A stretch of DNA of 64,000 bases from an uncultured bacterium (GTDB lineage: Bacteria; Bacteroidota; Bacteroidia; Chitinophagales; CAIODY01), in assembly GCA_903857255.1 (NCBI GenBank), contig CAIODY010000091.1, positions 11,831 through 75,830 of the forward strand, given 5' to 3'. The notes beneath the pieces were generated by a model. The model saw nothing but the letters and a program-made list of their open reading frames with translations, did not search any database and was not told the origin of the DNA. The translations under genes and the position numbers were made by a program. Below are positions 7,760-43,295 of this stretch, piece after piece (position 1 is the first letter of the stretch; every line of letters begins with the position of its first letter).

Positions 7760-7777
7760 AATAATTTGCAAGAAACT

Positions 7778-25313: not shown

Positions 25314-25652
25314 ATGAAAGAGTTCCTGCAAAATTTATGGACTTTCTTTTTTTATGTTGTTTTTATCGGAACAATTTTATTCGTGTTTTATTTTTTAATT
25401 GATTCAGTTAGCGAAATTGCAAATCGGTCTGAAGGAAAGAATACTTTGTTGGCTGAATTATGTGACTTCACAGACAAGCAAGCCGTCTGGATATGCAGTG
25501 CTGAAAGTATAGTAATGGTAATACTTTCAGGGGTTTCTATTTTTTATTTATTGAACTCGAAGAAATTAATCTCATTTCTTTTCTTCATTCTTATTTGGCT
25601 TTTTTTCTTTCTCACTTTGTGGTTTGAAAATTCACACAGAAATGGTTGTTGA
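25314..25652 (+). CDS. small hypothetical membrane protein
   Basis: The internal ATG at 25314 (MKEFLQNLWTFFFYVVFIGTILFVFYFLI...) follows the stop of the upstream gene. There are three predicted hydrophobic helices. The longer track ORF (25236) overlaps the preceding gene. Confidence 0.45.
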   Translation: MKEFLQNLWTFFFYVVFIGTILFVFYFLIDSVSEIANRSEGKNTLLAELCDFTDKQAVWICSAESIVMVILSGVSIFYLLNSKKLISFLFFILIWLFFFLTLWFENSHRNGC

Positions 25653-25897
25653 ATTTTTTGTTCGCCCAAAAGTGGCAACAGCAAAAAGTGAAAAGATGAT
25701 AAGTGGTAAAAGTTTTTTCATGTTCAAAAATAAAAATCAAAACGAAAGTTTGAAAAATATTTTCTGTTTTTCAAAAACATGACATTCATCATGTTTTGCC
25801 TTTCGCCTTCTACAATTGGCTACACACCTACTCGTTTTGTGTAAAAATATTTTATCGGTAAATTAATTTTATGCTTTTATAATTGAAAAGCGCAACT

Positions 25898-25905
25898 TAC
25901 ATTTG
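25898..25905 (+). promoter_or_regulatory. candidate -7 promoter box (TACATTTG) for the ACIII/cox operon
   Basis: It matches TAnnTTTG, lies 48 nt upstream of the actA ATG, and is the only such box in the 300-nt gap before actA. Confidence 0.4.
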
Positions 25906-25952
25906 CGGCTATCTATAAAAAACGGCTCACTAATTTTTCTTACGAATAGTTT

Positions 25953-27146
25953 ATGTATAAACCGGAAAACGCTGTACTCAAGCCAATCTTGGCACTTTTC
26001 TTTTTAACATTTATCGTTACAAAATTCTCATTCGCTGCGGTGGATGGCGAAGCAATCTTTAAAAACAACTGTAGCAGTTGTCATAAGATTGACGAAAAAA
26101 TGACTGGTCCGGCTTTAAAAGATGTTGAGAAAAGACGCGACAGAGCTTGGATTCATAAATGGGTACACAACTCGGCTGCTGTGGTTGCAAGTGGTGATGA
26201 TTATGCTGTGAAATTATTTAACGATTACAGCAAAACGCAAATGACTCAATTTCCAAATTTAAAAGATGAAGAAATTGATGGCATTTTGGATTATATCAAA
26301 ACGTATAAACCACCAGTTGCAAAAGCTACCACAGCAGGCGGTGATGCAAAAGAAGAAAACGGCGATTCACTTTATTTCTTAGCCTTGTTATTTATCATTT
26401 TCGTAGTAGTTTATTTGTTGATTGGCAAAGTAAACCGAAGTTTAATTTCATTGGTAAATGAAAAACAGCCAGGTGTTTTACCTAAACCAATTCCGTTATA
26501 CAAAAATCGCAGAATGCTTGGTTTCTTAGGCATTTTGGCGGTTATCTTTATTGGTTGGAGAGCTGCTGATTCGGCTGTTGACATGGGTCGTTCGCAGGGT
26601 TATACTCCAACTCAACCAATTAAATATTCTCACAAATTGCATGCTGGTGCAGTGGAAGATGGCGGTATGGCGATTGATTGTAAATATTGCCACGTTGGTG
26701 TTGAAAAAGGTAAACAAGCTGGTATTCCAACTGTAAATATTTGTATGAATTGTCACAAAGCTGTTGGTGAAACAGTGAACGGCACTGGCAAGGAAGAAAT
26801 TCAAAAAATTCGCGACGCTTATACATCGGGTAAACCTGTTGAATGGATTCGTATTCATAACTTACCTGACCATGTATTCTTTAGTCATGCGCAACACGTA
26901 AAAGCTGGTGGATTAGAATGTCAAACTTGTCATGGCGAAATTCAAAAAATGGAAATCGTTTCACAAAATCAGCCATTGTCAATGAGTTGGTGTATCAATT
27001 GTCATCGCGAAACAAAAGTATTGTTCAACGACAATAAATATTATGCGATGTATGAAAAATTACACCAAGACATGAAAGACGGAAAAATTAAAGGTGTAAC
27101 TGAAGCGATGATGGGTGGTTTGGAATGTCAAAAATGTCACTACTAA
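25953..27146 (+). CDS. actA: Alternative Complex III subunit ActA: multiheme cytochrome c with an extra N-terminal monoheme domain
   Basis: Six CxxCH motifs (CSSCH, CKYCH, CMNCH, CQTCH, CINCH, CQKCH). A TM helix (LYFLALLFIIFVVVYLLIG) separates the first monoheme domain from the pentaheme part. It is the first gene of an actABCDEF-ordered cluster. Confidence 0.88.
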   Translation: MYKPENAVLKPILALFFLTFIVTKFSFAAVDGEAIFKNNCSSCHKIDEKMTGPALKDVEKRRDRAWIHKWVHNSAAVVASGDDYAVKLFNDYSKTQMTQFPNLKDEEIDGILDYIKTYKPPVAKATTAGGDAKEENGDSLYFLALLFIIFVVVYLLIGKVNRSLISLVNEKQPGVLPKPIPLYKNRRMLGFLGILAVIFIGWRAADSAVDMGRSQGYTPTQPIKYSHKLHAGAVEDGGMAIDCKYCHVGVEKGKQAGIPTVNICMNCHKAVGETVNGTGKEEIQKIRDAYTSGKPVEWIRIHNLPDHVFFSHAQHVKAGGLECQTCHGEIQKMEIVSQNQPLSMSWCINCHRETKVLFNDNKYYAMYEKLHQDMKDGKIKGVTEAMMGGLECQKCHY

Positions 27147-27260
27147 TTTGAAATTCAATTGAACGCAGATTATTATGATTATTAAGATTGGCACAGATTA
27201 AAAATCATAACTTATCATAAAAATCAGCGTCATCAGCGTTCTATAAAAAATAAAAAATCT

Positions 27261-27288
27261 TAGTACCTAATACATAGTACTTAATACA
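27261..27288 (+). repeat. tandem 14-mer TAGTACcTAATACA / TAGTACtTAATACA, ending 9 nt upstream of the actB ATG
   Basis: Read directly from the sequence. The two copies differ at one position. Related copies are at 32251-32277 and 36140-36168. Confidence 0.85.
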
Positions 27289-27297
27289 TTCAAAAAG

Positions 27298-30200
27298 ATG
27301 GAAAAAAAATATTGGAAAGGTTTTGAAGAATTAAATCAAACAGAAGAGCACAAAGCAACTGTTCAAAATGAATTTAAAGAAGAGTTGCCTTTGGTTGAAT
27401 TGTTTGATGAAAAATTCGGAACGCAAAGTACAGGTCGCCGCGATTTCTTAAAAGTAATGGGCTTCAGCGTTGCTGCTGCTACAATTGCTGCAAGTTGCGA
27501 AATCCCTGTTCGTAAAGCAATTCCTTATGTAATCAAACCTGAGGAAGTTGTTCCGGGTGTTGCCAACTGGTATGCTTCTTCATATACGGATGGTGGCGAA
27601 TATTGCTCAATCTTAGTAAAAAGCCGCGAAGGTCGTCCAATCAAAATTGAAGGAAATCATAACAGCACTATTACCAAAGGTGGCACCAGTGCTCGTGTTC
27701 AAGCCAGCGTATTAAGTTTGTATGATACTAATCGCAGCAAAAATCCTTCTATCAACGGTAGCGAAGCATCATGGGATAAAATTGATGCAGCTATTAAAGG
27801 CGAATTGGCAAAAGGCGGTGTAGCTATTGTAACTTCAACTATTCTTTCACCAACTACAAAATCTGTTATCGCAGATTTTATCAAAAAATATCCGGGCAGC
27901 AAACACGTAACTTATGATGCACAATCATACAGTGGTATGTTGAGTGCTAACGAAGCTTCTTTTGGAAAATATGCTTTACCATCTTACGATTTTTCAAAAG
28001 CGAATGTGATTGTAAGTTTTGGTGCTGATTTCTTAGGCACTTGGATTTCGCCTGTTGAATTCACTAAACAATATGTACAAGGCAGAAAATTAGTGGGCGA
28101 TAAATATGAAATGAGCAAACATTTCCAAGTTGAATCTCATTTGAGTTTAACTGGTGCTAATGCTGATGACAGATTGGTGATTCACCCATCTGAAGAAGGT
28201 TTGGCAGTGGCTGATTTATACAATGCTTTGAATGGCGGTGCTTGCAAAATGCCTGCTATGAAAAAAGTTGCTGACGCTTTAATGGCTGCAAAAGGCTCGT
28301 CATTGGTGGTTTCGGGTAGCAACGATGTGAATATTCAAATGGTTGTAAATGCTATCAACACGATGTTGGGCAACTATGGTTCTACATTAGATATTCATCA
28401 TCATGCCAATTATGCACAAGGAAATGATGCCGAAGTTGCAGCTTTAATTGAAGATTTAAACGCAGGAAAATATGGTACAGTGATGATTGCAGGTTGCAAC
28501 CCAGCTTACGATTATCCTACACAAAAATTTGCTGATGCGATTAAGAAAACTGCTTGCAGAATTTCTTTCAATGCATCAATGGATGAAACAACTAAGTTGT
28601 GTAATTATCACACACCTGATAATCATTATTTGGAAAGCTGGAATGATGCAGAGCCTAAAGTTGGTTTGTATAGTATCACACAGCCAGTTATTGCGCCATT
28701 ATTTAAAACTCGTCAATTCCAAGATAGCTTATTGAAATGGATTGACTGCCCAAGCGATTACTATTCTTATTTACAAGAAAACTGGACAAAAAATATTTTG
28801 AAAGGTGATGTAAATGATTGGGATGCTGCAGTAAAATTAGGTGTTCATGGTGGTGGCGAAGAAGTTGTTGCAGTTTCAAAAAAAGAAGATAAATCTGCAA
28901 AAGCTGAAGATAAAAAATCTGCACCAAAAGCAAGTGGCAATGTTGAATCTGCTTTAGCAGCTATCAGTAGCACTTACAATGGTAAAAAAGGAATGGCAGT
29001 AGTTTTATATGAAAAAGTAGCTTTAGGAAATGGCAAACATGCTAACAATCCTTGGTTGCAAGAAATGCCAGACCCAATCACTAAAACGACTTGGGACAAT
29101 TACGCGATGATTTCTTATGCTACTGCATTGAAATTGGGCTTAATGGATAATAACGGAAGTTTATTCAGCGACCACAAACCTATGTGGGATGCGAAAGAAA
29201 CTAAATTGGTGAATGTAAAAGTTGGAAACACAACTATCAAATTGCCTTCATTAGTTCAACCTGGTATGGCTGACGATACTATTGCAATTGCAGTAGGTTA
29301 TGGCAGAACAGAAGCTGGTAAAGTGGGCAATGGTGTTGGTTCAAATGCTTATCCATTCAAAACTTGGAACAATGGAACTTGGTTGGGAAGTGCGATGAAT
29401 GCTGATGTTACAGCTACTTCTGAAAAAACAACTTTGGCGCAAACTCAAACGCATCATAGCTACGAAGGTCGTAGAGTAATTAAAGAAACAACATTGGCAG
29501 CTCACAAAGCCAATCCTAAAGCTGTAAACGAAGACCGTGAAGATATTAAAGCAATGACCACAACGCTTTATGGAGATAATCCACGTTATGGTCAGCATGA
29601 TTATAGCCAAGGCTTGAAATGGCACATGGCTATTGATTTGAATAGTTGTACTGGTTGTGGAAACTGTACTATTGCTTGTCAATCTGAAAATAACGTTTCT
29701 GTTGTTGGTAAAGACCACGTGATTCGTTCACACGAAATGCATTGGATTCGTATTGATAGATATTATTCAATCGGAAATAATGAAGGCGGCTTCAATACAA
29801 TGGAAAAAAATATCAATGCCGAACCAAATTTCCAAAACGTTCAGGTTGTGTTCCAACCTTTGATGTGTCAGCATTGTGCGAATGCACCATGTGAAAATGT
29901 TTGCCCTGTAAATGCAACCAATCACAGCAGCGAAGGCTTGAATCAAATGGCTTACAACCGTTGTATCGGGACAAGATATTGCGCAAACAACTGTCCTTAT
30001 AAAGTTCGTCGTTTCAACTGGATGGACTGGAATGGTGCTGATAGCTTTGAAGACAATATGCAAGAACAAGTTGAAGTATTGGGTATGTCGGAAAATTTAA
30101 CACGTATGGTGTTGAATCCTGATGTAACAGTTCGTGCAAGGGGGGTTATCGAAAAATGTTCTTTCTGCGTTCAACGTATCCAAGAAGGAAAATTAGAAGC

Positions 30201-30495
30201 GAAGAAAAATAATATGGAATTGGCTGATGGCATGATTCGTACAGCTTGTCAATCATCTTGCCCTGCTGATGCTATTGTATTTGGAAATATCAATGATAAA
30301 GAGAGTGCAGTTCGTAAAATGTATGATGCTGAAGATGAACGCCGTTTGTATTTTGTAATTGAAGAAATCAACGTGCAACCATCTGTAGGATATTTGGCTA
30401 AAGTGAGAAATACAGAAACAACAGGCACTTGGATGGAAAGCAAAGGCAAACACGAAGAACATCACGAAGAGAAAAAAGCAGAAGCAAAGGCATAA
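27298..30495 (+). CDS. actB: Alternative Complex III subunit ActB: Tat-exported molybdopterin-oxidoreductase-like domain fused to a 4Fe-4S ferredoxin-type domain
   Basis: Twin-arginine signal GRRDFLKVMGFSVAAATIAAS. A large MopB-like N-terminal half is followed by Cys clusters CTGCGNCTIACQSEN, CQHCANAPCENVCP, CIGTRYCANNCPYKVRRFN and CSFCVQRI. Confidence 0.92.
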   Translation: MEKKYWKGFEELNQTEEHKATVQNEFKEELPLVELFDEKFGTQSTGRRDFLKVMGFSVAAATIAASCEIPVRKAIPYVIKPEEVVPGVANWYASSYTDGGEYCSILVKSREGRPIKIEGNHNSTITKGGTSARVQASVLSLYDTNRSKNPSINGSEASWDKIDAAIKGELAKGGVAIVTSTILSPTTKSVIADFIKKYPGSKHVTYDAQSYSGMLSANEASFGKYALPSYDFSKANVIVSFGADFLGTWISPVEFTKQYVQGRKLVGDKYEMSKHFQVESHLSLTGANADDRLVIHPSEEGLAVADLYNALNGGACKMPAMKKVADALMAAKGSSLVVSGSNDVNIQMVVNAINTMLGNYGSTLDIHHHANYAQGNDAEVAALIEDLNAGKYGTVMIAGCNPAYDYPTQKFADAIKKTACRISFNASMDETTKLCNYHTPDNHYLESWNDAEPKVGLYSITQPVIAPLFKTRQFQDSLLKWIDCPSDYYSYLQENWTKNILKGDVNDWDAAVKLGVHGGGEEVVAVSKKEDKSAKAEDKKSAPKASGNVESALAAISSTYNGKKGMAVVLYEKVALGNGKHANNPWLQEMPDPITKTTWDNYAMISYATALKLGLMDNNGSLFSDHKPMWDAKETKLVNVKVGNTTIKLPSLVQPGMADDTIAIAVGYGRTEAGKVGNGVGSNAYPFKTWNNGTWLGSAMNADVTATSEKTTLAQTQTHHSYEGRRVIKETTLAAHKANPKAVNEDREDIKAMTTTLYGDNPRYGQHDYSQGLKWHMAIDLNSCTGCGNCTIACQSENNVSVVGKDHVIRSHEMHWIRIDRYYSIGNNEGGFNTMEKNINAEPNFQNVQVVFQPLMCQHCANAPCENVCPVNATNHSSEGLNQMAYNRCIGTRYCANNCPYKVRRFNWMDWNGADSFEDNMQEQVEVLGMSENLTRMVLNPDVTVRARGVIEKCSFCVQRIQEGKLEAKKNNMELADGMIRTACQSSCPADAIVFGNINDKESAVRKMYDAEDERRLYFVIEEINVQPSVGYLAKVRNTETTGTWMESKGKHEEHHEEKKAEAKA

Positions 30496-30658
30496 TTTGC
30501 AAATTTGATAATTAAATACAATGGCTTCATTCTGTAATAGAAGAAGTTAAAATTTGAAAATAGAAAAGCTAAAAAAATAAAAAAGTAGAGTTGAAAATAA
30601 AAGTTTAAAATCATTTTTAAATTTCTAAATTTTCAAATCTTCAAATTGAAAATAACTT

Positions 30659-32077
30659 ATGTCATTTAAAGAATCAGCATTACGGGAGCCTTTAGTAGAA
30701 GGTAACAAGTCGTACAAAGATGTTACAAACGACATCACCAACAGTATTTTTGGCACACCAACAAAAGGTTGGTTTGTTGCTTTTGGATTATCTGTTGCGT
30801 TGTTGTTGTATGGCGTATTTTGCGTTACTTATTTTGTTTACTATGGTATTGGAACTTGGGGCAGTAATAAAACCATAGGTTGGGCTTGGGATATCACCAA
30901 CTTCGTTTGGTGGATTGGTATCGGACATGCTGGTACATTGATTTCAGCCATCTTGTTATTGTTCCGTCAAAAATGGCGTACAGGTGTAAATCGTGCAGCT
31001 GAAGCAATGACGATTTTTGCGGTAATGTGTGCTGGCGTATTTCCTGTATTGCACATGGGTCGTGTGTGGATGGGTTTTTTCATTTTACCTTATCCAAATA
31101 CTCGTGGACCATTATGGCCAAACTTTGTATCTCCATTATTGTGGGATGTATTTGCGATTTCAACTTATTTCTCGGTTTCATTAATGTTCTGGTACACAGG
31201 TTTGATTCCTGATATTGCAACAATCCGTGACAGAGCAAAAAAAATTTGGCAACAAAAATTCTACGGTGCTTTATCATTTGGCTGGACAGGTTCTGCAAAG
31301 CACTGGCAACGCCACGAATCATTATCATTGGTGTTGGCAGGTTTATCTACACCACTTGTATTGTCAGTACACACGATAGTATCCTTTGACTTCGCCACTT
31401 CAGTAATTCCAGGCTGGCATACCACCATCTTCCCACCATACTTCGTTGCTGGTGCGGTATTCTCAGGTTTTGCAATGGTGCAAACGCTGATGTTGATGAC
31501 AAGAAAATTATTAAGATTAGAAGAGTATATCACTTTGAGTCATATTGATTCAATGAACCGAATCATCACTTTAACTGGTTCAATTGTTGGCTGTGCTTAT
31601 TTAACTGAATTGTTCACAGCATGGTATTCAGGCGCATTGTACGAACAGTATGCATTTATGAATCGTGCATTAGGACCTTATTGGTGGAGCTATTGGGGAA
31701 TGATGTTGTGTAACGTGGTATCTCCTCAATTGTTCTGGAGCAAAAAATTACGTACAAGCATTTTCTGGACTTTCTTCTTATCAATTGTGGTAAATATTGG
31801 TATGTGGTTCGAACGTTTCGTAATCATCGTTACATCATTGCACCGTGATTATTTACCATCTAGCTGGAATATGTTCTCTCCAACTTGGGTTGATATCGGA
31901 TTCTATTTAGGAACATTCGGCTTGTTCTTTACTTTATACTTATTGTTTGCTAAATATTTCCCTGTAATTGCAGTAGCTGAAATTAAGCATGTATTGAAAA
32001 CTACAGGTAATACACCAGCTCGTGAGGCTGAGTTGAAGGCAATAATGGATAAAGCAGCAGCGGTTGATGCTGCATAA
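30659..32077 (+). CDS. actC: Alternative Complex III subunit ActC (NrfD/PsrC-like quinol-interacting membrane subunit)
   Basis: 472-aa polytopic membrane protein at the position expected for ActC, with NrfD-like sequence character (WDITNFVWWIGIGHAGTLISAILLL). Confidence 0.88.
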   Translation: MSFKESALREPLVEGNKSYKDVTNDITNSIFGTPTKGWFVAFGLSVALLLYGVFCVTYFVYYGIGTWGSNKTIGWAWDITNFVWWIGIGHAGTLISAILLLFRQKWRTGVNRAAEAMTIFAVMCAGVFPVLHMGRVWMGFFILPYPNTRGPLWPNFVSPLLWDVFAISTYFSVSLMFWYTGLIPDIATIRDRAKKIWQQKFYGALSFGWTGSAKHWQRHESLSLVLAGLSTPLVLSVHTIVSFDFATSVIPGWHTTIFPPYFVAGAVFSGFAMVQTLMLMTRKLLRLEEYITLSHIDSMNRIITLTGSIVGCAYLTELFTAWYSGALYEQYAFMNRALGPYWWSYWGMMLCNVVSPQLFWSKKLRTSIFWTFFLSIVVNIGMWFERFVIIVTSLHRDYLPSSWNMFSPTWVDIGFYLGTFGLFFTLYLLFAKYFPVIAVAEIKHVLKTTGNTPAREAELKAIMDKAAAVDAA

Positions 32078-32112
32078 TGTGATGATGTGATAATTTGAAA
32101 ATGTGCAAATTG

Positions 32113-32199
32113 AATACAAATACACTTTACCACATAGCAACATAGAAAAGATAGAATACAAGAGATAAAGTTAAGTTACACATAGTTTCGCAAGCGAAA
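32113..32199 (+). repeat. intergenic repeat element, copy 1 (actC-actD spacer)
   Basis: aatacaaatacactttaccacatagcaacatagaa...aatacaaga...acatagtttcgcaagcgaaa. It aligns along its whole length with copies at 39543, 40403 and 58156(-). Confidence 0.8.
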
Positions 32200-32250
32200 T
32201 AAAAATGAAAAAACTTTGTGCCTTGGCGTGATAAAAATTAAAATCGGTCT

Positions 32251-32277
32251 TAGTACATAGTACTTAATACTAAATAC
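32251..32277 (+). repeat. TAGTACA / TAGTACTTAATAC / TAAATAC variant of the tandem motif upstream of actD
   Basis: Read directly from the sequence. It ends 10 nt before the ATG at 32288. Confidence 0.75.
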
Positions 32278-32287
32278 AAAAAGAAAA

Positions 32288-32833
32288 ATGGGAAGTAAAA
32301 AATTCTTACTGGGTATTTTCGGCGATGAAGATGTATTGCTCGAAGGTGTGCCTGCAATCAGAGAAAAGGGTATAAAAATTTACGACGTATTCACTCCGTT
32401 CCCAATTCACGGATTAGATACAGCAATGGGTTTACGTGAAAGTAAATTGCACATAGCAGGGTTCATTTATGGCATTACAGGAACATCAATTGCTTTGGGT
32501 TTCATGACTTGGGCTAATACTTTTGATTGGAGAGTAAATTTTGGTGGCAAACCTTTTTGGAGTTGGCCAGCCTACATTCCAATCACTTTTGAATTGACTG
32601 TATTGATGGCATCAGCTGGTATGGTGGCTACATTCATGTATTTGTGCCGCTTAGCGCCAGGTGTTCAAAAACACATTATGGATTTACGTCAGACTGATGA
32701 TAAAATGGTTGTTGCTATTGAAATTGACGAACATACTGATGTAAATAATTTAACCAGCATTTTAAAATCAAGCGGTGCTGAAGAAGTGAATACAAAGGTG
32801 ATTGATGATTGGTACAGATATAAAATTGCATAA
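32288..32833 (+). CDS. actD: Alternative Complex III subunit ActD (DUF3341-type)
   Basis: 181 aa. The N-terminus GIFGDEDVLLEGVPAIREKGIKIYDVFTPFPIHGLD is followed by two TM helices. Operon position fits ActD. Confidence 0.82.
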   Translation: MGSKKFLLGIFGDEDVLLEGVPAIREKGIKIYDVFTPFPIHGLDTAMGLRESKLHIAGFIYGITGTSIALGFMTWANTFDWRVNFGGKPFWSWPAYIPITFELTVLMASAGMVATFMYLCRLAPGVQKHIMDLRQTDDKMVVAIEIDEHTDVNNLTSILKSSGAEEVNTKVIDDWYRYKIA

Positions 32834-32968
32834 GCAATTTGAAAATTTGAGAATGAGAAAATTTGAAAATTGAAATACAGATTCTTTGTTTGATTCAGAA
32901 TGGCAACCAATTGAAACCGTCATCCTGAACGAAGTGAAGAAACTAAAAAAAATAGAACTGAAATAAAA

Positions 32969-33649
32969 ATGAGAAATAAATTTTTAGTAACAGCAAGCAT
33001 AGTGGCAGCAACTTTCTTAAGTTCTTGCTTTCGTGATGCAAAAAAACCAGGCTTAGAATATATGCCCGATATGGCACATCCGGTGTCTGTTGAAACTTAT
33101 GATGAAAGTAAGAATCTGGATATCAGTGCTGGCAGAACGAGCGAAAAATTCAGCGCATTGCAGCCTGTAAAAGGAACTGTGCCTACTGCACAAGGAATGT
33201 TGCCTTTCAAAAATGATGAGTATGATAATACTACTTCATACAAACCTTATCACCATGAATTTTCACCAGAAGGAGAAAAAGCTAGTGATGCCGATAAAAA
33301 TCCATTGGAAGTAAACAAAATCAATTTAACTGAAGGCAAACGTTTGTTCACTATTTATTGTTCGCCTTGTCATGGTGCCGAAGGCAATGCTGATGGAACA
33401 GTTACTATTGCTAACAATCATGCTTTCCCAATGGGAGCTCCATTCAGTTATTTCACTGATGCGAATTTAGCGTTAACCGAAGGACACATGTTTTATATTA
33501 CACAATATGGTAGAAACTCAATGGGAAGTTATGCTTCGCAATTGAATCCAAACGAACGTTGGAAAGTGATTATGTATGTAAAGCAAATGCAAGCTGATTA
33601 TGTAGCAAAAAATTCAGCAGCAAAAAAAGAAGAAAAGAAAAAAGCATAG
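32969..33649 (+). CDS. actE: Alternative Complex III subunit ActE (lipid-anchored monoheme cytochrome c)
   Basis: Lipobox-like FLSSC, a single CSPCHG heme motif, and the expected operon position. Confidence 0.82.
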   Translation: MRNKFLVTASIVAATFLSSCFRDAKKPGLEYMPDMAHPVSVETYDESKNLDISAGRTSEKFSALQPVKGTVPTAQGMLPFKNDEYDNTTSYKPYHHEFSPEGEKASDADKNPLEVNKINLTEGKRLFTIYCSPCHGAEGNADGTVTIANNHAFPMGAPFSYFTDANLALTEGHMFYITQYGRNSMGSYASQLNPNERWKVIMYVKQMQADYVAKNSAAKKEEKKKA

Positions 33650-33755
33650 TATTATGAATTAGGTATCAAGTATTATGATGTTCTTCTTAATTCCTAATAC
33701 TTAATTCTTAATTCAGCAATCAATAAATCTAAAATCATTAAATAGAAAATATTAA

Positions 33756-34979
33756 ATGGGACATCACAACACAGAAGTAGATTTGAATGAACGTTTTGAA
33801 TTTCCAGCAAAACTAAAGAACATAGCGTTTGGCTTGATGGGCGTTGGTTTGCTAGCGTTTTTAGCTGGCGTATTCATTAGTCATGATAGCACACGAACAT
33901 TGGCTGTCATGTTGCAAAATGGTTTGTTCTTTATGTTGATTACATTAATCAGCACATTTTTTATCGCTATTCACTACATGGCAAATGGCGGTTACATGGT
34001 CGCATTGAAGCGTATTCCTGAAGCTATAAGCCAAACGATGCCAATCATTGCTTTGTTTGTTTTTGGGTTGATTGCTTACATCATTTTAGGAAAACGCAAT
34101 GACATTTTTATTTGGTTAAATATTCCAGCTATTAAAAATGCTGAAGCTCGTGAATTGTTGGAAGGGAAAACGGGTTATTTGAATGTGCCGTTTTTTATCG
34201 TTCGTATCATTGCTTATTTAACAGTGTGGAGTTTTGGCGTAATGCAATATCGTAAGTTCTCTTTGCAAGAAGATGCAGCACCAGCAGGTTCGATGAAAAA
34301 CCACATCAACAGTCGTTTGTTCTCAGGGTTCTTCTTAGTATTTTTTGCAGTAACTATCTCTACTTCATCATGGGATTGGTTAATGAGTATTGATGCAAAA
34401 TGGTATTCAACCATGTATGGTTGGTATTGCTTTGTAAGTGCTTTGGTGAGTGGCATTTCACTAATGATGTTAGTGATACAATATTTAAGAAACCAAGGTC
34501 ATTTGAAAGCTGTTACTGATGAACATGTTCATGACTTAGGTAAATTCATGTTTGCATTCTCCATCTTGTGGACTTACCTATGGTTCTCACAATACATGTT
34601 GATTTGGTATTCAAACAACCCAGAAGAAACAGTTTATTTCCGCCAACGTTATGACCATTACAAAGTATTATTCTATTTGAATTTGTTGATGAACTTCGTT
34701 ACACCAATTTTTGTGTTGATGAAAAACACTTCAAAAAGAAATTCAAGAGTATTGGTGTTTATTGCTTCTGTTATCATCATTGGTCATTGGGTTGATTATT
34801 ATCAAATGATTATGCCTGGTACAGTTGGCAACAACTGGCATATTGGAATGCAGGAAATTGGTTTACCGATTTTCTTTGTTGGATTGATTATCTGGAGAAC
34901 ATTCAGTCAATTGGAAAAAGCGCCATTGATTCCGAAAAATCATCCTTATTTGCAAGAGAGTTTGCATCATCATGTATAA
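33756..34979 (+). CDS. actF: Alternative Complex III subunit ActF (second NrfD-like membrane subunit)
   Basis: 407-aa polytopic membrane protein immediately after actE. This is the standard ACIII gene order. Confidence 0.82.
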   Translation: MGHHNTEVDLNERFEFPAKLKNIAFGLMGVGLLAFLAGVFISHDSTRTLAVMLQNGLFFMLITLISTFFIAIHYMANGGYMVALKRIPEAISQTMPIIALFVFGLIAYIILGKRNDIFIWLNIPAIKNAEARELLEGKTGYLNVPFFIVRIIAYLTVWSFGVMQYRKFSLQEDAAPAGSMKNHINSRLFSGFFLVFFAVTISTSSWDWLMSIDAKWYSTMYGWYCFVSALVSGISLMMLVIQYLRNQGHLKAVTDEHVHDLGKFMFAFSILWTYLWFSQYMLIWYSNNPEETVYFRQRYDHYKVLFYLNLLMNFVTPIFVLMKNTSKRNSRVLVFIASVIIIGHWVDYYQMIMPGTVGNNWHIGMQEIGLPIFFVGLIIWRTFSQLEKAPLIPKNHPYLQESLHHHV

Positions 34980-35088
34980 GCCAAGTATAATGAATAGTGA
35001 ATATTGAGCATTAAGACAAATACAAAAAGACTTTTAGCCATTAGGGCAGAAAATAAAACTAATAACATAAAATAATTAACGAAAAATA

Positions 35089-36129
35089 ATGACAACGATT
35101 ATTATAGTAGGTATCATCATATTATTGATTAGCATTGTGTTTCAGGTGGCAAAAACCAGCGAAATGGTTAGTACTTTAAAAGGTGCTGCACAATCAAGAA
35201 AAGATTCAAACAATATTTTGGGAATATTGATGTTGGTGTTTATGCCCGTATTTCTAATTGGTTGCATTTGGTCAGCAGTCCACTTTCACAAAGATTTTTT
35301 ACCTGAATCTGCTTCGGTGCACGGTGATTGGATTGATAGCGTATTCAATACAACTTTGATTGTAACAGGATTGGTTTTCTTTCTTACTCAAATTGCCTTG
35401 TTTTGGTTTGCATTCAGATATCGCGAACAAGAAGGAAAGAAAGCATTGTACTATCCTGAAAATAATAAATTGGAAATGTGGTGGACAATTATTCCTGCTA
35501 TTTTCATGACAGTATTGGTTGTTACAGGATTGTTCTATTGGTATAAAATTACTGCACCAGCTCCTAAAGATGCGATGGTGATTGAAGTTACAGGAAAGCA
35601 ATTCAATTGGATTGCTCGTTACCCAGGTAAAGATGGAAAATTAGGGCATAAAAATTTTACTTTGATTAATGATAACAACGTGGAGGGATTAGATTGGAAT
35701 GATGAAGCCACAAAAGATGATATTATTCCAACTGAATTACATTTTGTTGTAGGCAAGCCAACTAAAATTATCATTAATTCAAGAGATGTAATGCACAATT
35801 TCGATTTACCGCATTTCCGTGTAAAATTAGATGCAGTACCGGGTATCCCAACTACATTTTGGTTCACACCAAAATATACTACCGAAGAAATGAGAGTTAG
35901 AGTTGGTAATCCAAAATTTAATTTTGAGTTGGCTTGTGCTCAAATTTGCGGACAAAGCCATTATGCTATGAAAATGGCAGTAGTGGTACAAACACAAGCT
36001 GAATTTGATGCTTGGATAAAAGACCAAAAGCCTTATTACGAAACTGCAATGCCTGCACCAGCAGTGGCTGAATCAGTACCAGCAGCTGAAGAAAAGAAAG
36101 ACGAAGCAAAAAAGGAAGAGAAAAAATAA
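35089..36129 (+). CDS. coxB: cytochrome c oxidase subunit II (CuA subunit, no fused cytochrome c domain)
   Basis: Two N-terminal TM helices, HNFDLPHFRVKLDAVPG, and CuA ligands CAQICGQSHYAM. There is no CxxCH motif. Confidence 0.9.
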   Translation: MTTIIIVGIIILLISIVFQVAKTSEMVSTLKGAAQSRKDSNNILGILMLVFMPVFLIGCIWSAVHFHKDFLPESASVHGDWIDSVFNTTLIVTGLVFFLTQIALFWFAFRYREQEGKKALYYPENNKLEMWWTIIPAIFMTVLVVTGLFYWYKITAPAPKDAMVIEVTGKQFNWIARYPGKDGKLGHKNFTLINDNNVEGLDWNDEATKDDIIPTELHFVVGKPTKIIINSRDVMHNFDLPHFRVKLDAVPGIPTTFWFTPKYTTEEMRVRVGNPKFNFELACAQICGQSHYAMKMAVVVQTQAEFDAWIKDQKPYYETAMPAPAVAESVPAAEEKKDEAKKEEKK

Positions 36130-36139
36130 ATAAAAATCA

Positions 36140-36168
36140 TAGTACCTAATACATTAGTACTTAATTCA
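36140..36168 (+). repeat. tandem TAGTACCTAATACA-t-TAGTACTTAATTCA upstream of ctaD
   Basis: Read directly from the sequence. It ends 12 nt before the ATG at 36181. The upstream context AAAAAATAAA(T)AAAAATC is shared with the actB copy. Confidence 0.85.
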
Positions 36169-36180
36169 AAAAGAAAATAA

Positions 36181-38022
36181 ATGAGTTCAACAGCAACACA
36201 TCACGTATCAGAAGAAGCCATCTATCATAAGGCTGAGTGGCATACACATCATCACCATGAACACAATGGTCATGACCATCAGGATACTTTTTTCAGCAAA
36301 TACGTCTTTTCGCAAGACCATAAAATGATTGCCAAACAGTTCTTGGTAACTGGTATTTTTTGGGCAATTATCGGCGGATTGATGAGTGCTTTATTTCGCA
36401 TTCAATTAGGTTATCCTGATGAACATTTTGGATTTTTGAGTTCATTATTAGGTCATTGGGCACCAGGTGGAAAAATTGACCCTCAATACTATTTAGCATT
36501 AGTAACTATGCATGGTACTATCATGGTATTCTTTGTATTGACTGGTGGATTAAGCGGAACGTTCTCTAACTTTTTGATTCCATTGCAAGTAGGCGCAAGA
36601 GATATGGCATCACCAGCTTTGAATATGCTAAGTTATTGGATGTTCGTGTTATCAAGCGTTGTGATGTTCTCTTCTTATTTCGTTTCATCTGGTCCTGCAT
36701 CAGCTGGTTGGACAGTTTATCCGCCATTGAGTGCTTTGCCTGAAGCAGTAAAAGGTTCAGGAACTGGTCAGGGTTTATGGTTAATCAGTATTGCATTATT
36801 CATTGTATCAGCATTATTGGGTGGTTTGAACTATGTGGCTACCATTTTAAATATGCGTACAAAAGGAATGACGATGACTCGTTTGCCTTTAACCATCTGG
36901 TCATTTTTATTAACTGCTATTTTAGGTATATTGTCTTTCCCGGTATTGTTGAGTGCAGCGTTGTTATTAATTTTCGATAGAAGCTTAGGCACTTCATTTT
37001 ATTTAAATGAAATTTATATCAACGGTCATGCAATGGTTGAACAAACTGGTGGTTCATCTATTTTATTCCAACACTTATTCTGGTTCTTAGGTCATCCTGA
37101 AGTTTACATCGTTATTCTTCCAGCGATGGGTTTAGTATCTGAAGTATTAGCTGTTAGTGCTCGTAAGCCTATCTTTGGTTACAAAGCCATGATTGGTTCT
37201 ATGTTGGCAATTGGTGGTTTATCATTCATCGTTTGGGCGCATCACATGTTCGTATCAGGTATGAATCCTTTTGTAGGTTCTATCTTCGTGGTATTAACGT
37301 TGATTATCGCCGTACCATCTGCTGTAAAAGTATTCAACTGGATTGCAACTATCTGGAGAGGTAGTATCCGTTTCACTCCGCAATCATTATTTGCTATTGG
37401 TTTTGTAAGCTTATTCATCAGCGGTGGTTTGACAGGATTGTTCTTAGGAAACTCAACAGTTGATATTGAATTGACTAAAACTTATTTCGTGGTAGCTCAC
37501 TTCCATATTGTAATGGGTGTTGCGGCGTTCTTCGGTTTGTTTGCTGGTGTTTATCACTGGTATCCAAAAATGTTTGGTCGCTACATGAATAACACTTTGG
37601 GTTACATTCACTTCTTTGTAACCTTCATTGGTAGCTATTTGATTTTCTGGCCTATGCACTATCAGGGAATGGCTGGTTTACCTCGTTGGTATTATACACA
37701 CAGCAGCTACGAAACATTCGGTCACATGGGCGAATTGAGCAAATTCATTTCTACTGTTGCTGTTATCGTTTTCCTCATGCAGGTGTTCTTTATTATCAAC
37801 TTCTTCTACAGCATGTATAAAGGAAGAAAAGTAACTGAACAAAATCCATGGGAAGCTACTACATTGGAATGGACTACACCGATTCAAGCACCACATGGCA
37901 ACTGGGAAGGTGATATTCCTGAAGTTTACCGTTGGCCTTATGATTACAGTAAAGAAAACGGAGAAGGATTTATTACGCAGGATACACCTATGAAACCAGG
38001 TGAACAACAATTGCACCATTAA
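36181..38022 (+). CDS. ctaD: cytochrome c oxidase subunit I
   Basis: 613 aa with classic heme-copper oxidase motifs (TMHGTIMVFF, WFLGHPEVYIVILPAMG, VWAHHMFVSGM, HFHIVMG). Confidence 0.95.
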   Translation: MSSTATHHVSEEAIYHKAEWHTHHHHEHNGHDHQDTFFSKYVFSQDHKMIAKQFLVTGIFWAIIGGLMSALFRIQLGYPDEHFGFLSSLLGHWAPGGKIDPQYYLALVTMHGTIMVFFVLTGGLSGTFSNFLIPLQVGARDMASPALNMLSYWMFVLSSVVMFSSYFVSSGPASAGWTVYPPLSALPEAVKGSGTGQGLWLISIALFIVSALLGGLNYVATILNMRTKGMTMTRLPLTIWSFLLTAILGILSFPVLLSAALLLIFDRSLGTSFYLNEIYINGHAMVEQTGGSSILFQHLFWFLGHPEVYIVILPAMGLVSEVLAVSARKPIFGYKAMIGSMLAIGGLSFIVWAHHMFVSGMNPFVGSIFVVLTLIIAVPSAVKVFNWIATIWRGSIRFTPQSLFAIGFVSLFISGGLTGLFLGNSTVDIELTKTYFVVAHFHIVMGVAAFFGLFAGVYHWYPKMFGRYMNNTLGYIHFFVTFIGSYLIFWPMHYQGMAGLPRWYYTHSSYETFGHMGELSKFISTVAVIVFLMQVFFIINFFYSMYKGRKVTEQNPWEATTLEWTTPIQAPHGNWEGDIPEVYRWPYDYSKENGEGFITQDTPMKPGEQQLHH

Positions 38023-38043
38023 TTTTCAATAGAAAAATAAAAA

Positions 38044-38930
38044 TTGACAAAAGCTATTTCCATATCGAACCCTATCATCAGCAAAATCTATGATTATGGT
38101 GTGTTGGCTAAATTCAAGCTCACCTCCTTCATCATCATGAGTGCGGCGGCGGGCTATGGAATTGCTTTTCAGGGGTCATTAAATACATTTAAGTTCTTTA
38201 GTTTATTAGTAGGCGGATTTTTAATTACAGCTTCATCTAATGCCATCAATCAGATTCTGGAAAGAAATTTTGATGTATTGATGGACAGAACAGCTAACCG
38301 ACCATTGGCATCAGAACGTATGAGTTTGATGGAAGCCATGGTAGCAGCAGGTTTTGCAGGCGTTGGAGGGGTAATGGTATTGTGGTTTTATTGCAATAAC
38401 ATTGCAGGTATATTAGGCGCACTGGCTTTATTGAGCTATGCATTTATATATACGCCAATGAAACGGATTTCTCCCATTTCAGTATGGGTAGGAGCTATAC
38501 CAGGTGCCTTGCCACCAATGATAGGCGTAGTTGCAGCAACTGGCAGATTAGATGCATTGGCCTGGGTAATGTTTGGCATTCAGTTCTTATGGCAGTTTCC
38601 ACACTATTGGGCTATTGCCTGGTGATTGACGAAGATTATCAGAAAGCAGGTTATAAAATGTTGCCGTCAAAAGGCGGAAAAGACAGAATCACTGCATCAT
38701 TCAGTTTGTTATATGCAGCCATGTTGATTCCGATGGGAATTATCCCGACTTATTTTGGCTGGTGCAATAATTTAACTTTGGTCATTATGGTGCTTTGCGG
38801 ATTAATGATGTTGGTGCAGGCAATCGTTCTTTTTATAAAATTAGATAACAAGGCAGCAAGAGGATTAATGTTTGGTTCATTTGTTTATTTACCAATTGTT
38901 TTGCTGGCTTTAATCATAGGAAAAATATAA
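38044..38930 (+). pseudogene. cyoE: heme O synthase (protoheme IX farnesyltransferase) interrupted by a single-nucleotide frameshift
   Basis: ORF 38044..38625 ends ...FLWQFPHYWAIAW-TGA. ORF 38484..38930, in another frame, continues ...LVIDEDYQKAGYKMLPSKGG... to a normal CyoE/CtaB C-terminus. Adding one G to the GG at 38621-38622 restores AIAWVIDEDYQKAGYKMLP and a protein of about 295 aa. Confidence 0.85.
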
Positions 38931-38937
38931 GTACAAA

Positions 38938-39534
38938 ATGGCAACAACAGCTACATATCAACCAACTGCCGACGATTATAAAATTAATCCGAAGAAGTTT
39001 GCTTTATGGGCGGCAATTGCCAGCATCTGTATGTTCTTTGTTGGCATCACCAGCGCATTTATTGTAAAAAAAGGTGCTGATGTAGCCAACGGACATTGGA
39101 TGTTTTTTAAAATGCCGGTGATATTTTATTTCAGCACGGTAGTTATTGTATTAAGCAGTGTGAGTTTGTTTTTTGCTAAAAAGTTCTTTTTAAAAGGTGA
39201 TAAAAGCGGCTATCAGATTTCGATGTTAATCAGTTCCATATTAGGCACAGTATTTTTAGTGATGCAATATCTAGGTTGGAGAGCATTAGTTGAAATTGGA
39301 GTTTATTTGGGTGGTAGTTTATCTAACCCGAGCGGTTCGTTTTTTTACATTATTTCGGGCACACATGCTTTACATATTTTGGGTGGCTTAATCATTATGT
39401 ATTGGGCAACCATTAAAGCATTTGTTCGCAAAACTAATGTACAGAGCAAATTGGGAATAGAGTTGATTTCTACTTACTGGCATTTTGTAGATTTCTTATG
39501 GTTGTATTTATTTGCGATGTTGCTTTTCTTCTAG
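38938..39534 (+). CDS. cytochrome c oxidase subunit III family protein (first copy)
   Basis: 198 aa and five TM helices. The C-terminal motif STYWHFVDFLWLYLF is typical of COX3. Confidence 0.8.
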   Translation: MATTATYQPTADDYKINPKKFALWAAIASICMFFVGITSAFIVKKGADVANGHWMFFKMPVIFYFSTVVIVLSSVSLFFAKKFFLKGDKSGYQISMLISSILGTVFLVMQYLGWRALVEIGVYLGGSLSNPSGSFFYIISGTHALHILGGLIIMYWATIKAFVRKTNVQSKLGIELISTYWHFVDFLWLYLFAMLLFF

Positions 39535-39542
39535 CAAGTAAT

Positions 39543-39630
39543 AACAAATACATTCAACCACATAGGGACATAAAAAACATAGAAGACAAGATTAAAAAGA
39601 CAAAGAGAACATAAGTTTCACAAGCGAAAA
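39543..39630 (+). repeat. intergenic repeat element, copy 2 (spacer between the two cox3 genes)
   Basis: aacaaatacattcaaccacatagggacata...caagattaaaaag...gaacataagtttcacaagcgaaaaaa. It starts 9 nt after the upstream stop codon. Confidence 0.8.
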
Positions 39631-39712
39631 AATTTGTGAAACAGGGAAAATAGAAAAAGAAATATTCGTGCATTCGTGGCGAAAAAAATAAAAAACAGAA
39701 AATAAAATAAAC

Positions 39713-40399
39713 ATGAGTTCAACAGCAACGACAAGTTCAAACGTATGGGGTGGTGGCGTATCACCATTTAATGTGCGTTGGGGAAAATTAATGATGTGGT
39801 ACTTTTTGGTGAGTGATGCTTTTACCTTTTCTGCCTTACTGGTAGCTTATGGCACTATTCGCACCATGAATCCTTGGTGGCCTAACCCACAACATGTATT
39901 CCGCAGCTTTCCTTTTTGTGGCACTGCCAATTTACCGCTGTTATTCGTAAGTTTAATGACTTTCATCCTCATCATGAGTTCGGTAACTATGGTGTTGGCT
40001 GTTTACGAAGGACATCGCAACAACCGCAACAAAGTGATTATGTGGATGATACCAACTATTATTGGTGGTATAGCTTTCTTGAGTTGCCAAGCTTGGGAAT
40101 GGACACATTTAATTGTTGACGAACATACCCGTTTAACATCTAACTTTTTTGGTCCGATAGTAAATGGCGAAGAAACACATGGTCCAGCACAATTTGGTCA
40201 GTTGTTTTTTGTTATCACAGGTTTCCACGGCTTTCACGTATTTTCGGGGGTTATTATCAATATCTTATTAACACTTGCAGTGGCAAAAGGAACATTCGAT
40301 AAAAAAGGAAATTACGAAATGGTTGAAAAAGTAGGCTTATACTGGCACTTTGTAGATTTAGTGTGGGTATTTGTGTTCTTGTGTTTTTATCTTTTATAA
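39713..40399 (+). CDS. cytochrome c oxidase subunit III family protein (second copy)
   Basis: 228 aa with FFVITGFHGFHVFSGV and GLYWHFVDLVWVFVFLCFY, both typical COX3 motifs. Confidence 0.85.
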   Translation: MSSTATTSSNVWGGGVSPFNVRWGKLMMWYFLVSDAFTFSALLVAYGTIRTMNPWWPNPQHVFRSFPFCGTANLPLLFVSLMTFILIMSSVTMVLAVYEGHRNNRNKVIMWMIPTIIGGIAFLSCQAWEWTHLIVDEHTRLTSNFFGPIVNGEETHGPAQFGQLFFVITGFHGFHVFSGVIINILLTLAVAKGTFDKKGNYEMVEKVGLYWHFVDLVWVFVFLCFYLL

Positions 40400-40402
40400 C
40401 CC

Positions 40403-40484
40403 ATACAATTTAACCACAAAGGCACAGTAGTTTTCATAGCAATACAAAATGCAAGCGACGCATAGTTTCGCAAGCGAAAAAAAA
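40403..40484 (+). repeat. intergenic repeat element, copy 3 (cox3 to subunit IV spacer)
   Basis: catacaatttaaccacaaaggcacagtag...caatacaaaatgcaagcgacgcatagtttcgcaagcgaaaaaaaa. It starts 4 nt after the upstream stop codon. Confidence 0.75.
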
Positions 40485-40511
40485 TAATTCATAATTCATA
40501 ACTCAATTAAT

Positions 40512-40880
40512 ATGTCAGAAGAAGTACACGAACACGAAGCATCAAGCCCAAAAACAATTTGGAGAACTTTCTGGATTTTATTGGCAATTACTATTGGTGA
40601 AATTTTGTTTGCAGTTTTAGTTGCACCACACATGGGCGGCAAACTAATCCCTAACTTATTATATGCTGTATTGTCTATCATGAAAGCAGGCTATATCATT
40701 TCTGAATTTATGCACATGAAATACGAAGCCAAAAACTTGATTCGTACAGTAGGTTTACCAACCTTGCTTTTGATTTGGTTAATCACCGCTTTAGCCATGG
40801 AAGGCACCAGTTGGAAACACATGATGAACAAACCCATGCCCGAAGGTGCTGAAATGGAACATGCGGCTGCCAGCAAATAA
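40512..40880 (+). CDS. prokaryotic cytochrome c oxidase subunit IV family protein
   Basis: 122 aa and three TM helices (TFWILLAITIGEILFAVLVA...). It is the last gene before the operon terminator. Confidence 0.72.
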   Translation: MSEEVHEHEASSPKTIWRTFWILLAITIGEILFAVLVAPHMGGKLIPNLLYAVLSIMKAGYIISEFMHMKYEAKNLIRTVGLPTLLLIWLITALAMEGTSWKHMMNKPMPEGAEMEHAAASK

Positions 40881-40900
40881 ACGATGCTGCTAAAAATATT

Positions 40901-40936
40901 AAAAGCCTCTTTACCATAGTGTAGAGAGGCTTTTTT
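40901..40936 (+). terminator. intrinsic terminator closing the ACIII/cox cluster
   Basis: A 10-bp stem, gcctctttac (40905-14) pairing with gtagagaggc (40921-30) with one G-U pair, has a 6-nt loop and is followed by TTTTTT. Confidence 0.75.
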
Positions 40937-41106
40937 ATTGCCTTGTTTCAATGGCTGTATAATCAAGATGGGTGGATAATTGCTGAACTGCTGTGATGCT
41001 TTGAGATGAGCGGTATTGCTTTTTTATAAAAAATGATGAAAACTTTTTCGATTTCATTTAATATATTCGCAACCTATTTTTTTAATCACCTAATTATCCC
41101 AATTTT

Positions 41107-42969: not shown

Positions 42970-42997
42970 AAGTGTACGACAACAATCACTTATAAAG

Positions 42998-43029
42998 GCT
43001 CAAACTGTAATGGTTTGGGCTTTTTTTTT
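42998..43029 (+). terminator. intrinsic terminator after the 41107..42969 gene
   Basis: Stem gctcaaac (42998-43005) pairs with gtttgggc (43013-43020) with one G-U pair. A run of nine T follows. Confidence 0.7.
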
Positions 43030-43034
43030 GCGGC

Positions 43035-43214: not shown

Positions 43215-43274
43215 CTAATAAAAAAAGCTGTGTTTTGATTATTTTTTCTACCAAGCTCACCTACCATACATCAT

Positions 43275-43295
43275 GTGGAAAAACCATGTGGATAA
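43275..43295 (+). promoter_or_regulatory. two DnaA-box-like 9-mers 12 nt apart
   Basis: TGTGGAAAA (43275-83) has one mismatch. TGTGGATAA (43287-95) is the exact complement of TTATCCACA. Both sit inside the direct repeat CATGTGGA(A/T)AA. Confidence 0.3.

Follow-up and report, generated by a model that had tools for sequence, protein, structure and literature searches.

Dispersed copies of a lineage-specific non-coding repeat between co-directional genes of an uncultured freshwater Bacteroidota

Four stretches of about 90 bases in a 64-kb segment of an uncultured freshwater Bacteroidota metagenome-assembled genome (GenBank contig CAIODY010000091.1, positions 11,831 to 75,830; the whole of this segment is referred to below as the window) are genuine copies of a lineage-specific non-coding repeat, here named family A. 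Each copy lies in a spacer between two genes of the same orientation, and comparison of orthologous spacers suggests that family A was inserted between the genes of this lineage recently. The element has more the look of mobile filler that is tolerated than of a regulatory signal that is conserved. The closest named relatives of the genome are Chitinophagaceae, with ~64% Cox3 identity.

An earlier note made from the window sequence had reported four full-length copies. A hidden Markov model (HMM) built from these was used to search the window with nhmmer (all filters off, E≤10), and exactly the same four were recovered with no further match; all copy counts refer to the 64-kb window. The copies are designated c1 to c4. 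Copy c1 (32105–32206, + strand; nhmmer 32110–32203, E 1.3e-22) is in the actC–actD spacer, where it is preceded by a module named Z and followed by modules X and Y, which are described below. Copy c2 (39535–39636, + strand; nhmmer 39538–39635, E 2.9e-17) directly follows the TAG stop codon in the cox3a–cox3b spacer; one arm of its hairpin is mutated (TTTCAC), and a linker and then X are found downstream. The shortest and most diverged copy, c3 (40400–40486, + strand; nhmmer 40404–40484, E 1.5e-16), directly follows the TAA stop codon in the cox3b–cox4 spacer. Copy c4 (58150–58256, − strand; nhmmer 58155–58251, E 1.7e-23) is located in the spacer between pnp (futalosine-hydrolase-like) and era, where the whole inserted unit, consisting of c4 and a 35-nucleotide (nt) tail, spans 58121–58254 (− strand). 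Copies c1 to c3 are thus clustered in 8.4 kb, and c4 is 17.7 kb away on the opposite strand.

The products of the flanking gene pairs were identified as NrfD-type ActC and ActD (c1), COX3 and COX3 (c2), COX3 and COX4 (c3), and a PNP_UDP_1 futalosine-hydrolase-like protein and Era (c4). All four copies share the strand of both neighbouring genes, as the note had claimed. When the flanks were included in the alignment, the unit was found to reach ~8 nt further 5' (GCAnnnnnAATACAAATAC) than had been proposed. In c2, c3 and c4 it lies directly against the stop codon, and the copies start 0–35 nt past the stop codon, not the 4–35 nt given previously. Pairwise identity among the four is 57–73%, and the previous figure of 70–75% is therefore too high. 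At ≤3 mismatches, three matches were found to the 5' motif of family A and three to the 3' motif, compared with an expectation of 0.00 in shuffled sequences. A more diverged copy had also been suggested at 59422–59473. It was not detected by the HMM, and its local alignment scores were within the range given by shuffles and control spacers, the spacer in question holding instead an exact copy of X.

Family A is ~95 nt long (95–135 nt), ~50% A and 13–14% G, and non-palindromic. Alignment revealed that both ends are conserved and that the middle is variable. The 5' terminus is GCAnnnnnAATACAAATACATTTAACCACATAG, and the 3' terminus consists of ACATAG, a hairpin (TTTCGC-AA-GCGAAA) and an A-run, the A-type 3' end being ATAG followed by TTTCGCAAGCGAAA. 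When a fifth copy from the related locus L067 (see below) was included, the 6+6 inverted repeat TTTCGC-N2-GCGAAA was the best conserved block, identical in four of the five copies. The hairpin is preceded by ATAG (CATAG-TTTCGC) in four of the five and by ATAAG in c2.

Past the hairpin there is an A-run rather than a U-run, and the copies thus do not end in an intrinsic terminator, in agreement with the earlier observation. Little other RNA structure was found. Single-sequence folds of c1, c3 and c4 were no more stable than those of shuffled sequences (z-scores about 0), c2 folds into a private 10-bp hairpin, and the consensus fold of the five sequences retained only a 5-bp stem (UUUCG/CGAAA; −1.76 kcal/mol), with no covariation. 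A scan of 25500–41300 revealed no terminator-like site in the three operon spacers holding family A (the c4 spacer was checked by reading), and a classical terminator follows cox4 (40902–40939). It is therefore very probable that the three operon copies are transcribed inside one alternative complex III (ACIII)/cytochrome-oxidase mRNA.

Each copy contains 0–2 potential start codons (AUG, GUG or UUG) in the sense direction versus 10–12 in the antisense direction, and the sense strand has stop codons in all three frames. The antisense excess is significant (P 0.002–0.07). Statistically, there is no case for selected depletion of sense start codons, as composition accounts for the low count (P 0.1–0.67).

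Orthologous spacers and distribution of family A

The same operon was compared in six related species, which were reached via Cox3 homologues. Coding identity to the window was 92.8% for locus L069, 80.2% for L060, 80.0% for L067, 79.2% for L054 and 71.5% for L057. L067 and L054 are sisters (89.5% identity). L005 is from the same species as L067, L068 carries the same cox3a–cox3b copy, and L072 is from the same relative species as L069, the two being on one scaffold.

Spacers of 14–48 nt were found through the whole operon in the outgroup (L057–59). In the closest relative, L069, family A is missing from all three operon spacers that hold it in the window. The actC–actD spacer is 34 nt in L069 versus 210 nt in the window. 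The cox3a–cox3b spacer of L069 (74 nt) is unrelated to that of the window and homologous to that of L060. The cox3b–cox4 spacer of L069 matches that of the window in length, with an unrelated palindromic repeat, family B, in place of family A; the stop codon on the left and the sequence on the right, (A)nTAATTNATAATTCATAACTCAATTAATATG, are shared by both.

The pnp–era spacer of L072 is an empty site of 15 nt (TAA-AACTCTTAAATACTT-ATG) adjacent to an era gene with 88% nt identity to that of the window. In the window, these 15 nt are preceded by a 134–138-nt insertion made up of family A and the 35-nt tail. As the element is absent or swapped in a close relative, is combined with other modules in mosaics, and is missing from an outgroup that has 14–48-nt spacers, these operons have no conserved requirement for it.

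Besides the window, family A was found among the compared species once, in the cox3a–cox3b spacer of L067. Over the last 20 nt of cox3a and the entire spacer, the window goes with L067, and L069 goes with L060; the coding sequence adjoining this cassette groups the window with L069 (119/120 nt). The window and L067 share 72% identity over the whole spacer and 84% over its 5' 56 nt, compared with 58% at third codon positions of the neighbouring genes. Family A was not found in L054, the sister of L067, nor in L060, L074 or L075, and its distribution is hence patchy.

Other insertions were also seen in the operon of L067, which holds small gene pairs encoding proteins with DUF433/DUF5615 and DUF4160/DUF2442 domains (1962–2520 and 8717–9218; also in L068, and in L075 at 8920–9174). 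In the relatives, these pairs lie between actD and the cytochrome c gene and between ctaB and cox3a, and the window has none at these places. Both types, DUF433 with DUF5615 and DUF4160 with DUF2442, look like candidate toxin–antitoxin pairs, and their presence in L067 indicates that the operon spacers accept foreign insertions.

In ENA sample ERZ1426822, the ActD and Era proteins encoded by two short contigs are identical to those of the window, and the spacers are 34 nt and 15 nt, respectively, as in the species represented by L069 and L072. Either c1 and c4 could be present in some members of the species and absent from others, or the assembly could be a chimera with an L069-like species.

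The earlier note had proposed a wider scan for further copies, and this was carried out in part, using the exact 3' 19-mer against 185,579 species-representative genomes. The genome containing the window is outside this collection (its two exact 19-mers were not returned). One true extra copy, that in L005, was found, and the range is accordingly narrow. A match in a Lachnospiraceae genome (L006) was treated as chance, as the rest of the element was dissimilar and ~4 chance matches are expected for a 19-mer in 596 Gb. A scan of a metagenome collection with a 5' 20-mer returned 47 loci, all chance, none of which matches the family A HMM, and a scan of viral contigs with a 3' 18-mer returned no matches. 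No match to the c4 unit was found in plasmids and phages using blastn. No Rfam 15 family matched at the gathering score anywhere in the window, and only noise (E 5–10) was seen in the c1 and c4 spacers at E≤10, while a full-text literature search for the family A motifs found nothing relevant. At the sequence level, it therefore holds that no described class matches the element.

Accompanying modules and palindromic families

The actC–actD spacer had been described as a composite of several modules, and this proved correct, with modules X, Y and Z each recurring elsewhere. Module X (ACTTTGYGSCTTGGCGTGA) has three matches in the window versus 0.04 expected, and four by HMM. The consensus form, CTTTGYGNCTTGGCGTGA followed by an A-run, is represented at these four window sites and also in L067 (twice) and L075. 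Two of the window sites lie 3' of family A copies, after c1 (CTTTGTGCCTTGGCGTGA and an A-run; 32205–32245, + strand; E 3.6e-8) and after c2 (ATATTCGTGCATTCGTGGCGAAAAAA; 39657–39695, + strand; E 2.8e-6). The others are solo copies, one in the SCO1/SenC–DUF420 spacer (47116–47162, − strand; E 3.9e-6) preceded by Z (47163–47194), and one just upstream of a gyrA/parC-like gene (59496–59539, + strand; E 5e-8), which includes the exact match at 59506–59524. The 47116–47194 region repeats the Z...X frame of the actC–actD spacer without family A.

An X-like box was also found in the actC–actD spacer of L075 (E 0.013), with a weak match, seen by eye, in that of L074 (E 0.93). In L067, an X core identical to that after c2 (ATATTCGTGCATTCGTGGCGAAAA; 7774–7804) comes after a family B element. 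The seven best-scoring X matches (E≤0.013; five are the sequences used to build the model) are all in the sense orientation. The possibility that X includes a very small open reading frame (ORF) was rejected on reading the sequences, as frames and start codons are not conserved among the c1, c2, L067 and 47116 sites.

Module Y, made up of TAGTAC/TAATAC repeats, was defined by alignment and is located immediately upstream of actD (32249–32278, + strand), with sister copies upstream of actB (27259–27288; exact match at 27261) and coxI (36138–36168). Module Z (AATAATTTGAAAATGTG) has eight matches versus 2.6 expected. It consists of period-8 repeats of the AATTTGAAAAT type and directly follows the actC stop codon (32078–32112, + strand); Z-like runs are also present at 30493–30519, 32834–32872 and 47163–47194 (− strand), and Z sits right after four stop codons. 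A further run with a period of 8 (GATAATGT GATAATAT GCTAATGT GCTAATAA; 55097–55131) is just upstream of a dnaG-like gene on the minus strand. It resembles Z and, loosely, a Fur-box hexamer array, and is the only Z-like run that is antisense to its genes.

Two further families are imperfect palindromes. Family B (CAGATNCTT..CAGNATGNC / GTCATCCTGAACGAAGTGAAG) is in the actD–cytochrome c spacer (32873–32943, + strand) and aligns with copies in non-orthologous spacers, namely cox3b–cox4 in L069 (10688–10775) and that between the cytochrome c gene and the next gene in L074 (4014–4095). Another copy was read by eye in the coxI–ctaB spacer of L067 (7690–7770). Family E (GAACGCAGATTATTATGAT ... AATCAGCGTCATCAGCGTTC) is in the actA–actB spacer (27161–27241, + strand) and aligns with a copy in the PTPS–gyrA spacer of L072 (8745–8842). 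Neither is detectably related to family A; this was tested by alignment for B, and homology of A and B was rejected as z-scores were about 0. By eye, both B and E carry CGTC beside a palindrome arm (CCGTCATCCTGAACGAAG; CAGCGTCATCAGCGTTC). They presumably resemble the repeats that give rise to spurious 'HPERSEGS'-type ORFs in many Bacteroidota.

The module combinations observed were Z-A-X-Y (actC–actD), A-X (cox3a–cox3b, also in L067), Z-X (47116–47194), Z-B (32834–32943) and B-X (L067, 7690–7804). Several short modules are hence combined in a recurring order at many intergenic sites, an arrangement of the type known for bacterial interspersed mosaic elements (BIMEs) and BOX elements.

Comparison with known repeats and alternative explanations

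The BOX elements of Streptococcus pneumoniae (boxA–boxB–boxC) are intergenic, non-coding and modular, with ~45–60-nt blocks in a fixed order and of variable content. They belong to the Firmicutes, form stable secondary structures and occur in both orientations, and they are not known to have a transposase of their own. BOX and family A would be alike in forming modular intergenic composites. However, family A is unstructured and in the sense orientation, and is not known to have any sequence relation to BOX.

The BIMEs of Enterobacteriaceae, which combine repetitive extragenic palindromic (REP) units with short motifs, are like the family A set in being intergenic, often located between co-transcribed genes past stop codons, transcribed with the operon, modular and variably present. 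However, REP units are G+C-rich palindromes in alternating orientation, whereas family A is non-palindromic, A-rich and always sense, with a 5–6-bp A/T-rich terminal hairpin. BIMEs are from another phylum and share no sequence similarity with family A, which does not have the REP-palindrome core.

REP elements and REPINs are mobilised by RAYT (IS200/IS605-type Y1) transposases, and GTAG- and CGTC-tagged families are known (PMC3733652). Family A is REP-like in having no terminal inverted repeats, no clear target duplication and a tetranucleotide (ATAG versus GTAG) 5' of a terminal stem-loop, and REPs are also found mainly downstream of coding regions between unidirectional genes (PMC3733652). 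However, REPs are 20–40-bp G-C-rich tagged palindromes, whereas family A is ~95 nt with a 14-nt hairpin and is not a palindrome of this kind, and its ATAG is tag-like without being one of the GTAG or CGTC tags (PMC3733652). Families B and E, with CGTC by the palindromic arms, appear by eye to be closer to the REP class than family A, and CGTC-tagged REP-like repeats have been reported in Bacteroidetes (PMC3733652).

MITEs (miniature inverted-repeat transposable elements), such as the Correia elements of Neisseria, RUP and the MITE of P. gingivalis (PMC4596501), are like family A in being small non-autonomous insertions that are present or absent among close relatives. MITEs can be co-transcribed and can alter expression of neighbouring genes. 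They are, however, defined by terminal inverted repeats and target-site duplications, whereas family A has no inverted ends and at most an AA/AAAA duplication. Family A is a small dispersed intergenic repeat that is unusual in being non-palindromic, always sense and stop-adjacent.

On balance, family A is probably a non-coding dispersed repeat, non-autonomous and specific to the lineage, within a BIME/BOX-like mosaic that has recently expanded the intercistronic spacers. The earlier note had offered three roles, namely mRNA processing or stability sites, docking sites that set subunit stoichiometry, and a REP/BIME-like selfish repeat. The comparative loci favour the last in a broad sense, and contradict a conserved operon requirement. 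Under the dispersed-repeat explanation, no fewer than five families of small repeats (A, B, E, X and Y/Z) would have colonised the spacers of one uncultured freshwater Bacteroidota genus. Copies would enter between the upstream stop codon and the ~15–40-nt A-rich initiation region of the downstream gene, and would then ride passively on the polycistronic mRNA.

Bacteroidota start translation without Shine–Dalgarno pairing. The sense orientation and stop-adjacent position are probably what purifying selection leaves. In a 15–35-nt spacer, the site directly after the stop codon would be the only place at which an insertion spares the A-rich initiation region. The sense RNA is unstructured and has few starts, stops in all frames and no terminator. 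An antisense copy would place 10–12 AUG/GUG/UUG codons before a gene in a phylum that does not select starts by Shine–Dalgarno pairing. Copying might depend on recognition of the ATAG-plus-hairpin end by a single-strand transposase (HUH/Y1, RAYT-like) acting in trans, or might occur via recombination or template switching between A-rich spacers. This 3' end, together with the conserved termini, is reminiscent of the GTAG-plus-palindrome to which RAYT transposases respond (PMC3733652). Conserved termini with a variable middle are expected for a sequence that is recognised at its ends.

Several observations weigh against this explanation. The aligned ends, compared by eye, reveal no terminal inverted repeats, the 5' end (AATACAAATACATTTAACC) not being complementary to the 3' end (GCAAGCGAAAAAAA). 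A Pfam scan of 30 of the 44 window ORFs detected no transposase domain. The pnp–era junctions are in A-runs, and any target duplication is at most an ambiguous AA/AAAA. Of the four family A copies, three are in respiratory-chain gene clusters, as are three of the four X modules, and this clustering could reflect function or local copying rather than free transposition. All five family A cores (the four in the window and that in L067) are sense, and this uniform orientation, shared by the seven best-scoring X matches, is suggestive but might equally well reflect an RNA-level function. From the grouping of sequences at cox3a–cox3b, it appears that recombination has exchanged a spacer cassette there, as opposed to a simple insertion, and the conservation between the window and L067 suggests that the sequence is constrained, either for mobility or for a host function. 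Those points that favour function could also arise from a mobility constraint, local copying or a selection filter. GC skew follows the gene strand, so skew does not separate replication-linked from transcription-linked orientation. Among the 25 longest of 604 inverted pairs, those involving family A join different copies on opposite strands and not the ends of one copy, and no inverted dimers were found among the four window copies.

The strongest competitor, considered possible though unlikely, is that family A is a functional intercistronic RNA element, an unstructured A/C-rich, start-poor and stop-rich RNA with (C)AUAG and AAUACAA motifs that tunes subunit stoichiometry. It might do so as a ribosome landing or standby platform (bS1-type binding), a platform for an RNA-binding protein, an RNase entry site that uncouples cistron stability, or a Rho-loading stretch. 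The essentially unstructured RNA predicted for c1, c3 and c4 (z about 0) would suit single-strand binders, and the sense orientation of five of five family A cores and of the seven best X matches is as expected. However, the low sense start count is explained by composition alone, and the paralogues are just 57–73% identical with a variable middle. Also in favour are the placement of c1, c2 and c3 in the ACIII/cytochrome oxidase operon, with X in a third respiratory spacer, the X-like box in the actC–actD spacer of three species and the 84% identity of the window and L067 over the 5' 56 nt versus 58% at third codon positions. However, the closest relative (~93%) and the outgroup run the same operon with 14–48-nt spacers that lack the element, the unrelated palindromic repeat occupies the cox3b–cox4 slot in the relative, and a copy is also found between the functionally unrelated pnp and era, where the relative has an empty site.

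A related proposal, which is less likely again, is that A and X together form a transferable intercistronic RNA cassette, an unstructured A-rich spacer free of start codons and rich in stops, that uncouples cistrons and serves as a platform for ribosomes or an RNA-binding protein in Bacteroidota lacking Shine–Dalgarno pairing, gained by insertion or recombination and kept for retuning of stoichiometry. If this were true, the cassette would represent a previously undescribed class of mobile module acting on translation or stability, and not inert filler.

It is improbable that the spacers are filler generated locally by slippage, duplication and gene conversion among A-rich spacers, together with homologous recombination between co-occurring species, without dedicated mobility or function. 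The clustering of three of the four copies within 8.4 kb is consistent with such an origin, as are the many spacers built of 7–8-nt or 14-nt tandem units, the junctions in A-runs and the recombination-type pattern at cox3a–cox3b, where 20 nt of cox3a and the spacer go with L067 and the flanks with L069. However, c4 is a clean insertion 17.7 kb away, on the other strand and between an unrelated gene pair, the spacers that hold families B and E in different species are not orthologous, and slippage would not give conserved termini.

Least credible are DNA-level binding sites for a regulator or nucleoid-associated protein that would control the respiratory operon or shape the local organisation of the DNA (TTTCGC-N2-GCGAAA, CATAG boxes and the period-8 X/Z motifs), as, despite the 6+6 inverted repeat being the best conserved block (identical in four of five copies), the construction of X and Z from 8-nt tandem units such as the ATTCGTGC-ATTCGTGG and AAATTTGA repeats and the bias towards respiratory genes, strict orientation to transcription is unexpected for a palindromic operator, the palindrome is mutated in c2, the elements are missing from close relatives, and they lie inside the operon 6–14 kb downstream of the sole canonical Bacteroidota-type promoter box read, upstream of actA. 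A promoter role was also rejected, as reading of the sequence located the Bacteroidota −7 box TAnnTTTG in ordinary promoter spacers and not in A, X or Z. Examples of this box are TACATTTG upstream of actA (25653–25952 spacer) and TAAATTTG near 10526; a sigma-70 promoter scan is uninformative for this phylum.

The locus is a clean, datable example of Bacteroidota operon spacers growing from ~15–40 nt to 110–210 nt by taking in small repeat modules, with different modules competing for one slot directly after the stop codon. Because the phylum does not use Shine–Dalgarno pairing, the inserts that are tolerated, their orientation and their distance from the start codon provide a natural experiment on the rules for initiation at internal cistrons. 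If it is true that the ATAG-plus-hairpin end mobilises family A, the range of a REP/RAYT-type mechanism would come to include an A-rich element that is not palindromic. In practical terms, the repeats lead to false small-ORF calls and to broken contigs when metagenomes of this group are assembled.

Other features of the window

The 422-nt gap after a gene for a 620-amino acid (aa) protein (42970–43391) contains a cluster of CACCCC/GGGGTG hairpins with T-runs. Within it, and especially at 43041–43232, there are three direct repeats spaced at 63 nt (CCTTTT..AAAATTTCACCCCTTTTTTTTT) with inverted partners (AAAAGGGGGTGAAAAAAA). This region may consist of stacked bidirectional terminators or be another repeat family.

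Two large ORFs, at 904–6720 (1938 aa) and 11326–21270 (3314 aa), have internal repeats, made up of 153-nt (51-aa) units with conserved Cys codons at 3360–6150 and 36–40-nt Gly/Thr-rich units at 12720–14229. Both ORFs probably encode secreted or surface repeat proteins. A 319-aa ORF that includes a C-terminal peptidoglycan-binding domain also carries tandem repeats, seven of 69 nt (23 aa) each, at 6932–7525.

Downstream of era, in a 264-nt spacer (56964–57227, − strand; L064 3998–4144), a called 48-aa ORF overlaps the start of a sigma-70 family gene by 4 nt. The start codons of the divergent PNP-like and PTPS genes are 12 nt apart (58935–58946), and the promoters of these two genes must therefore lie inside each other's coding sequence.

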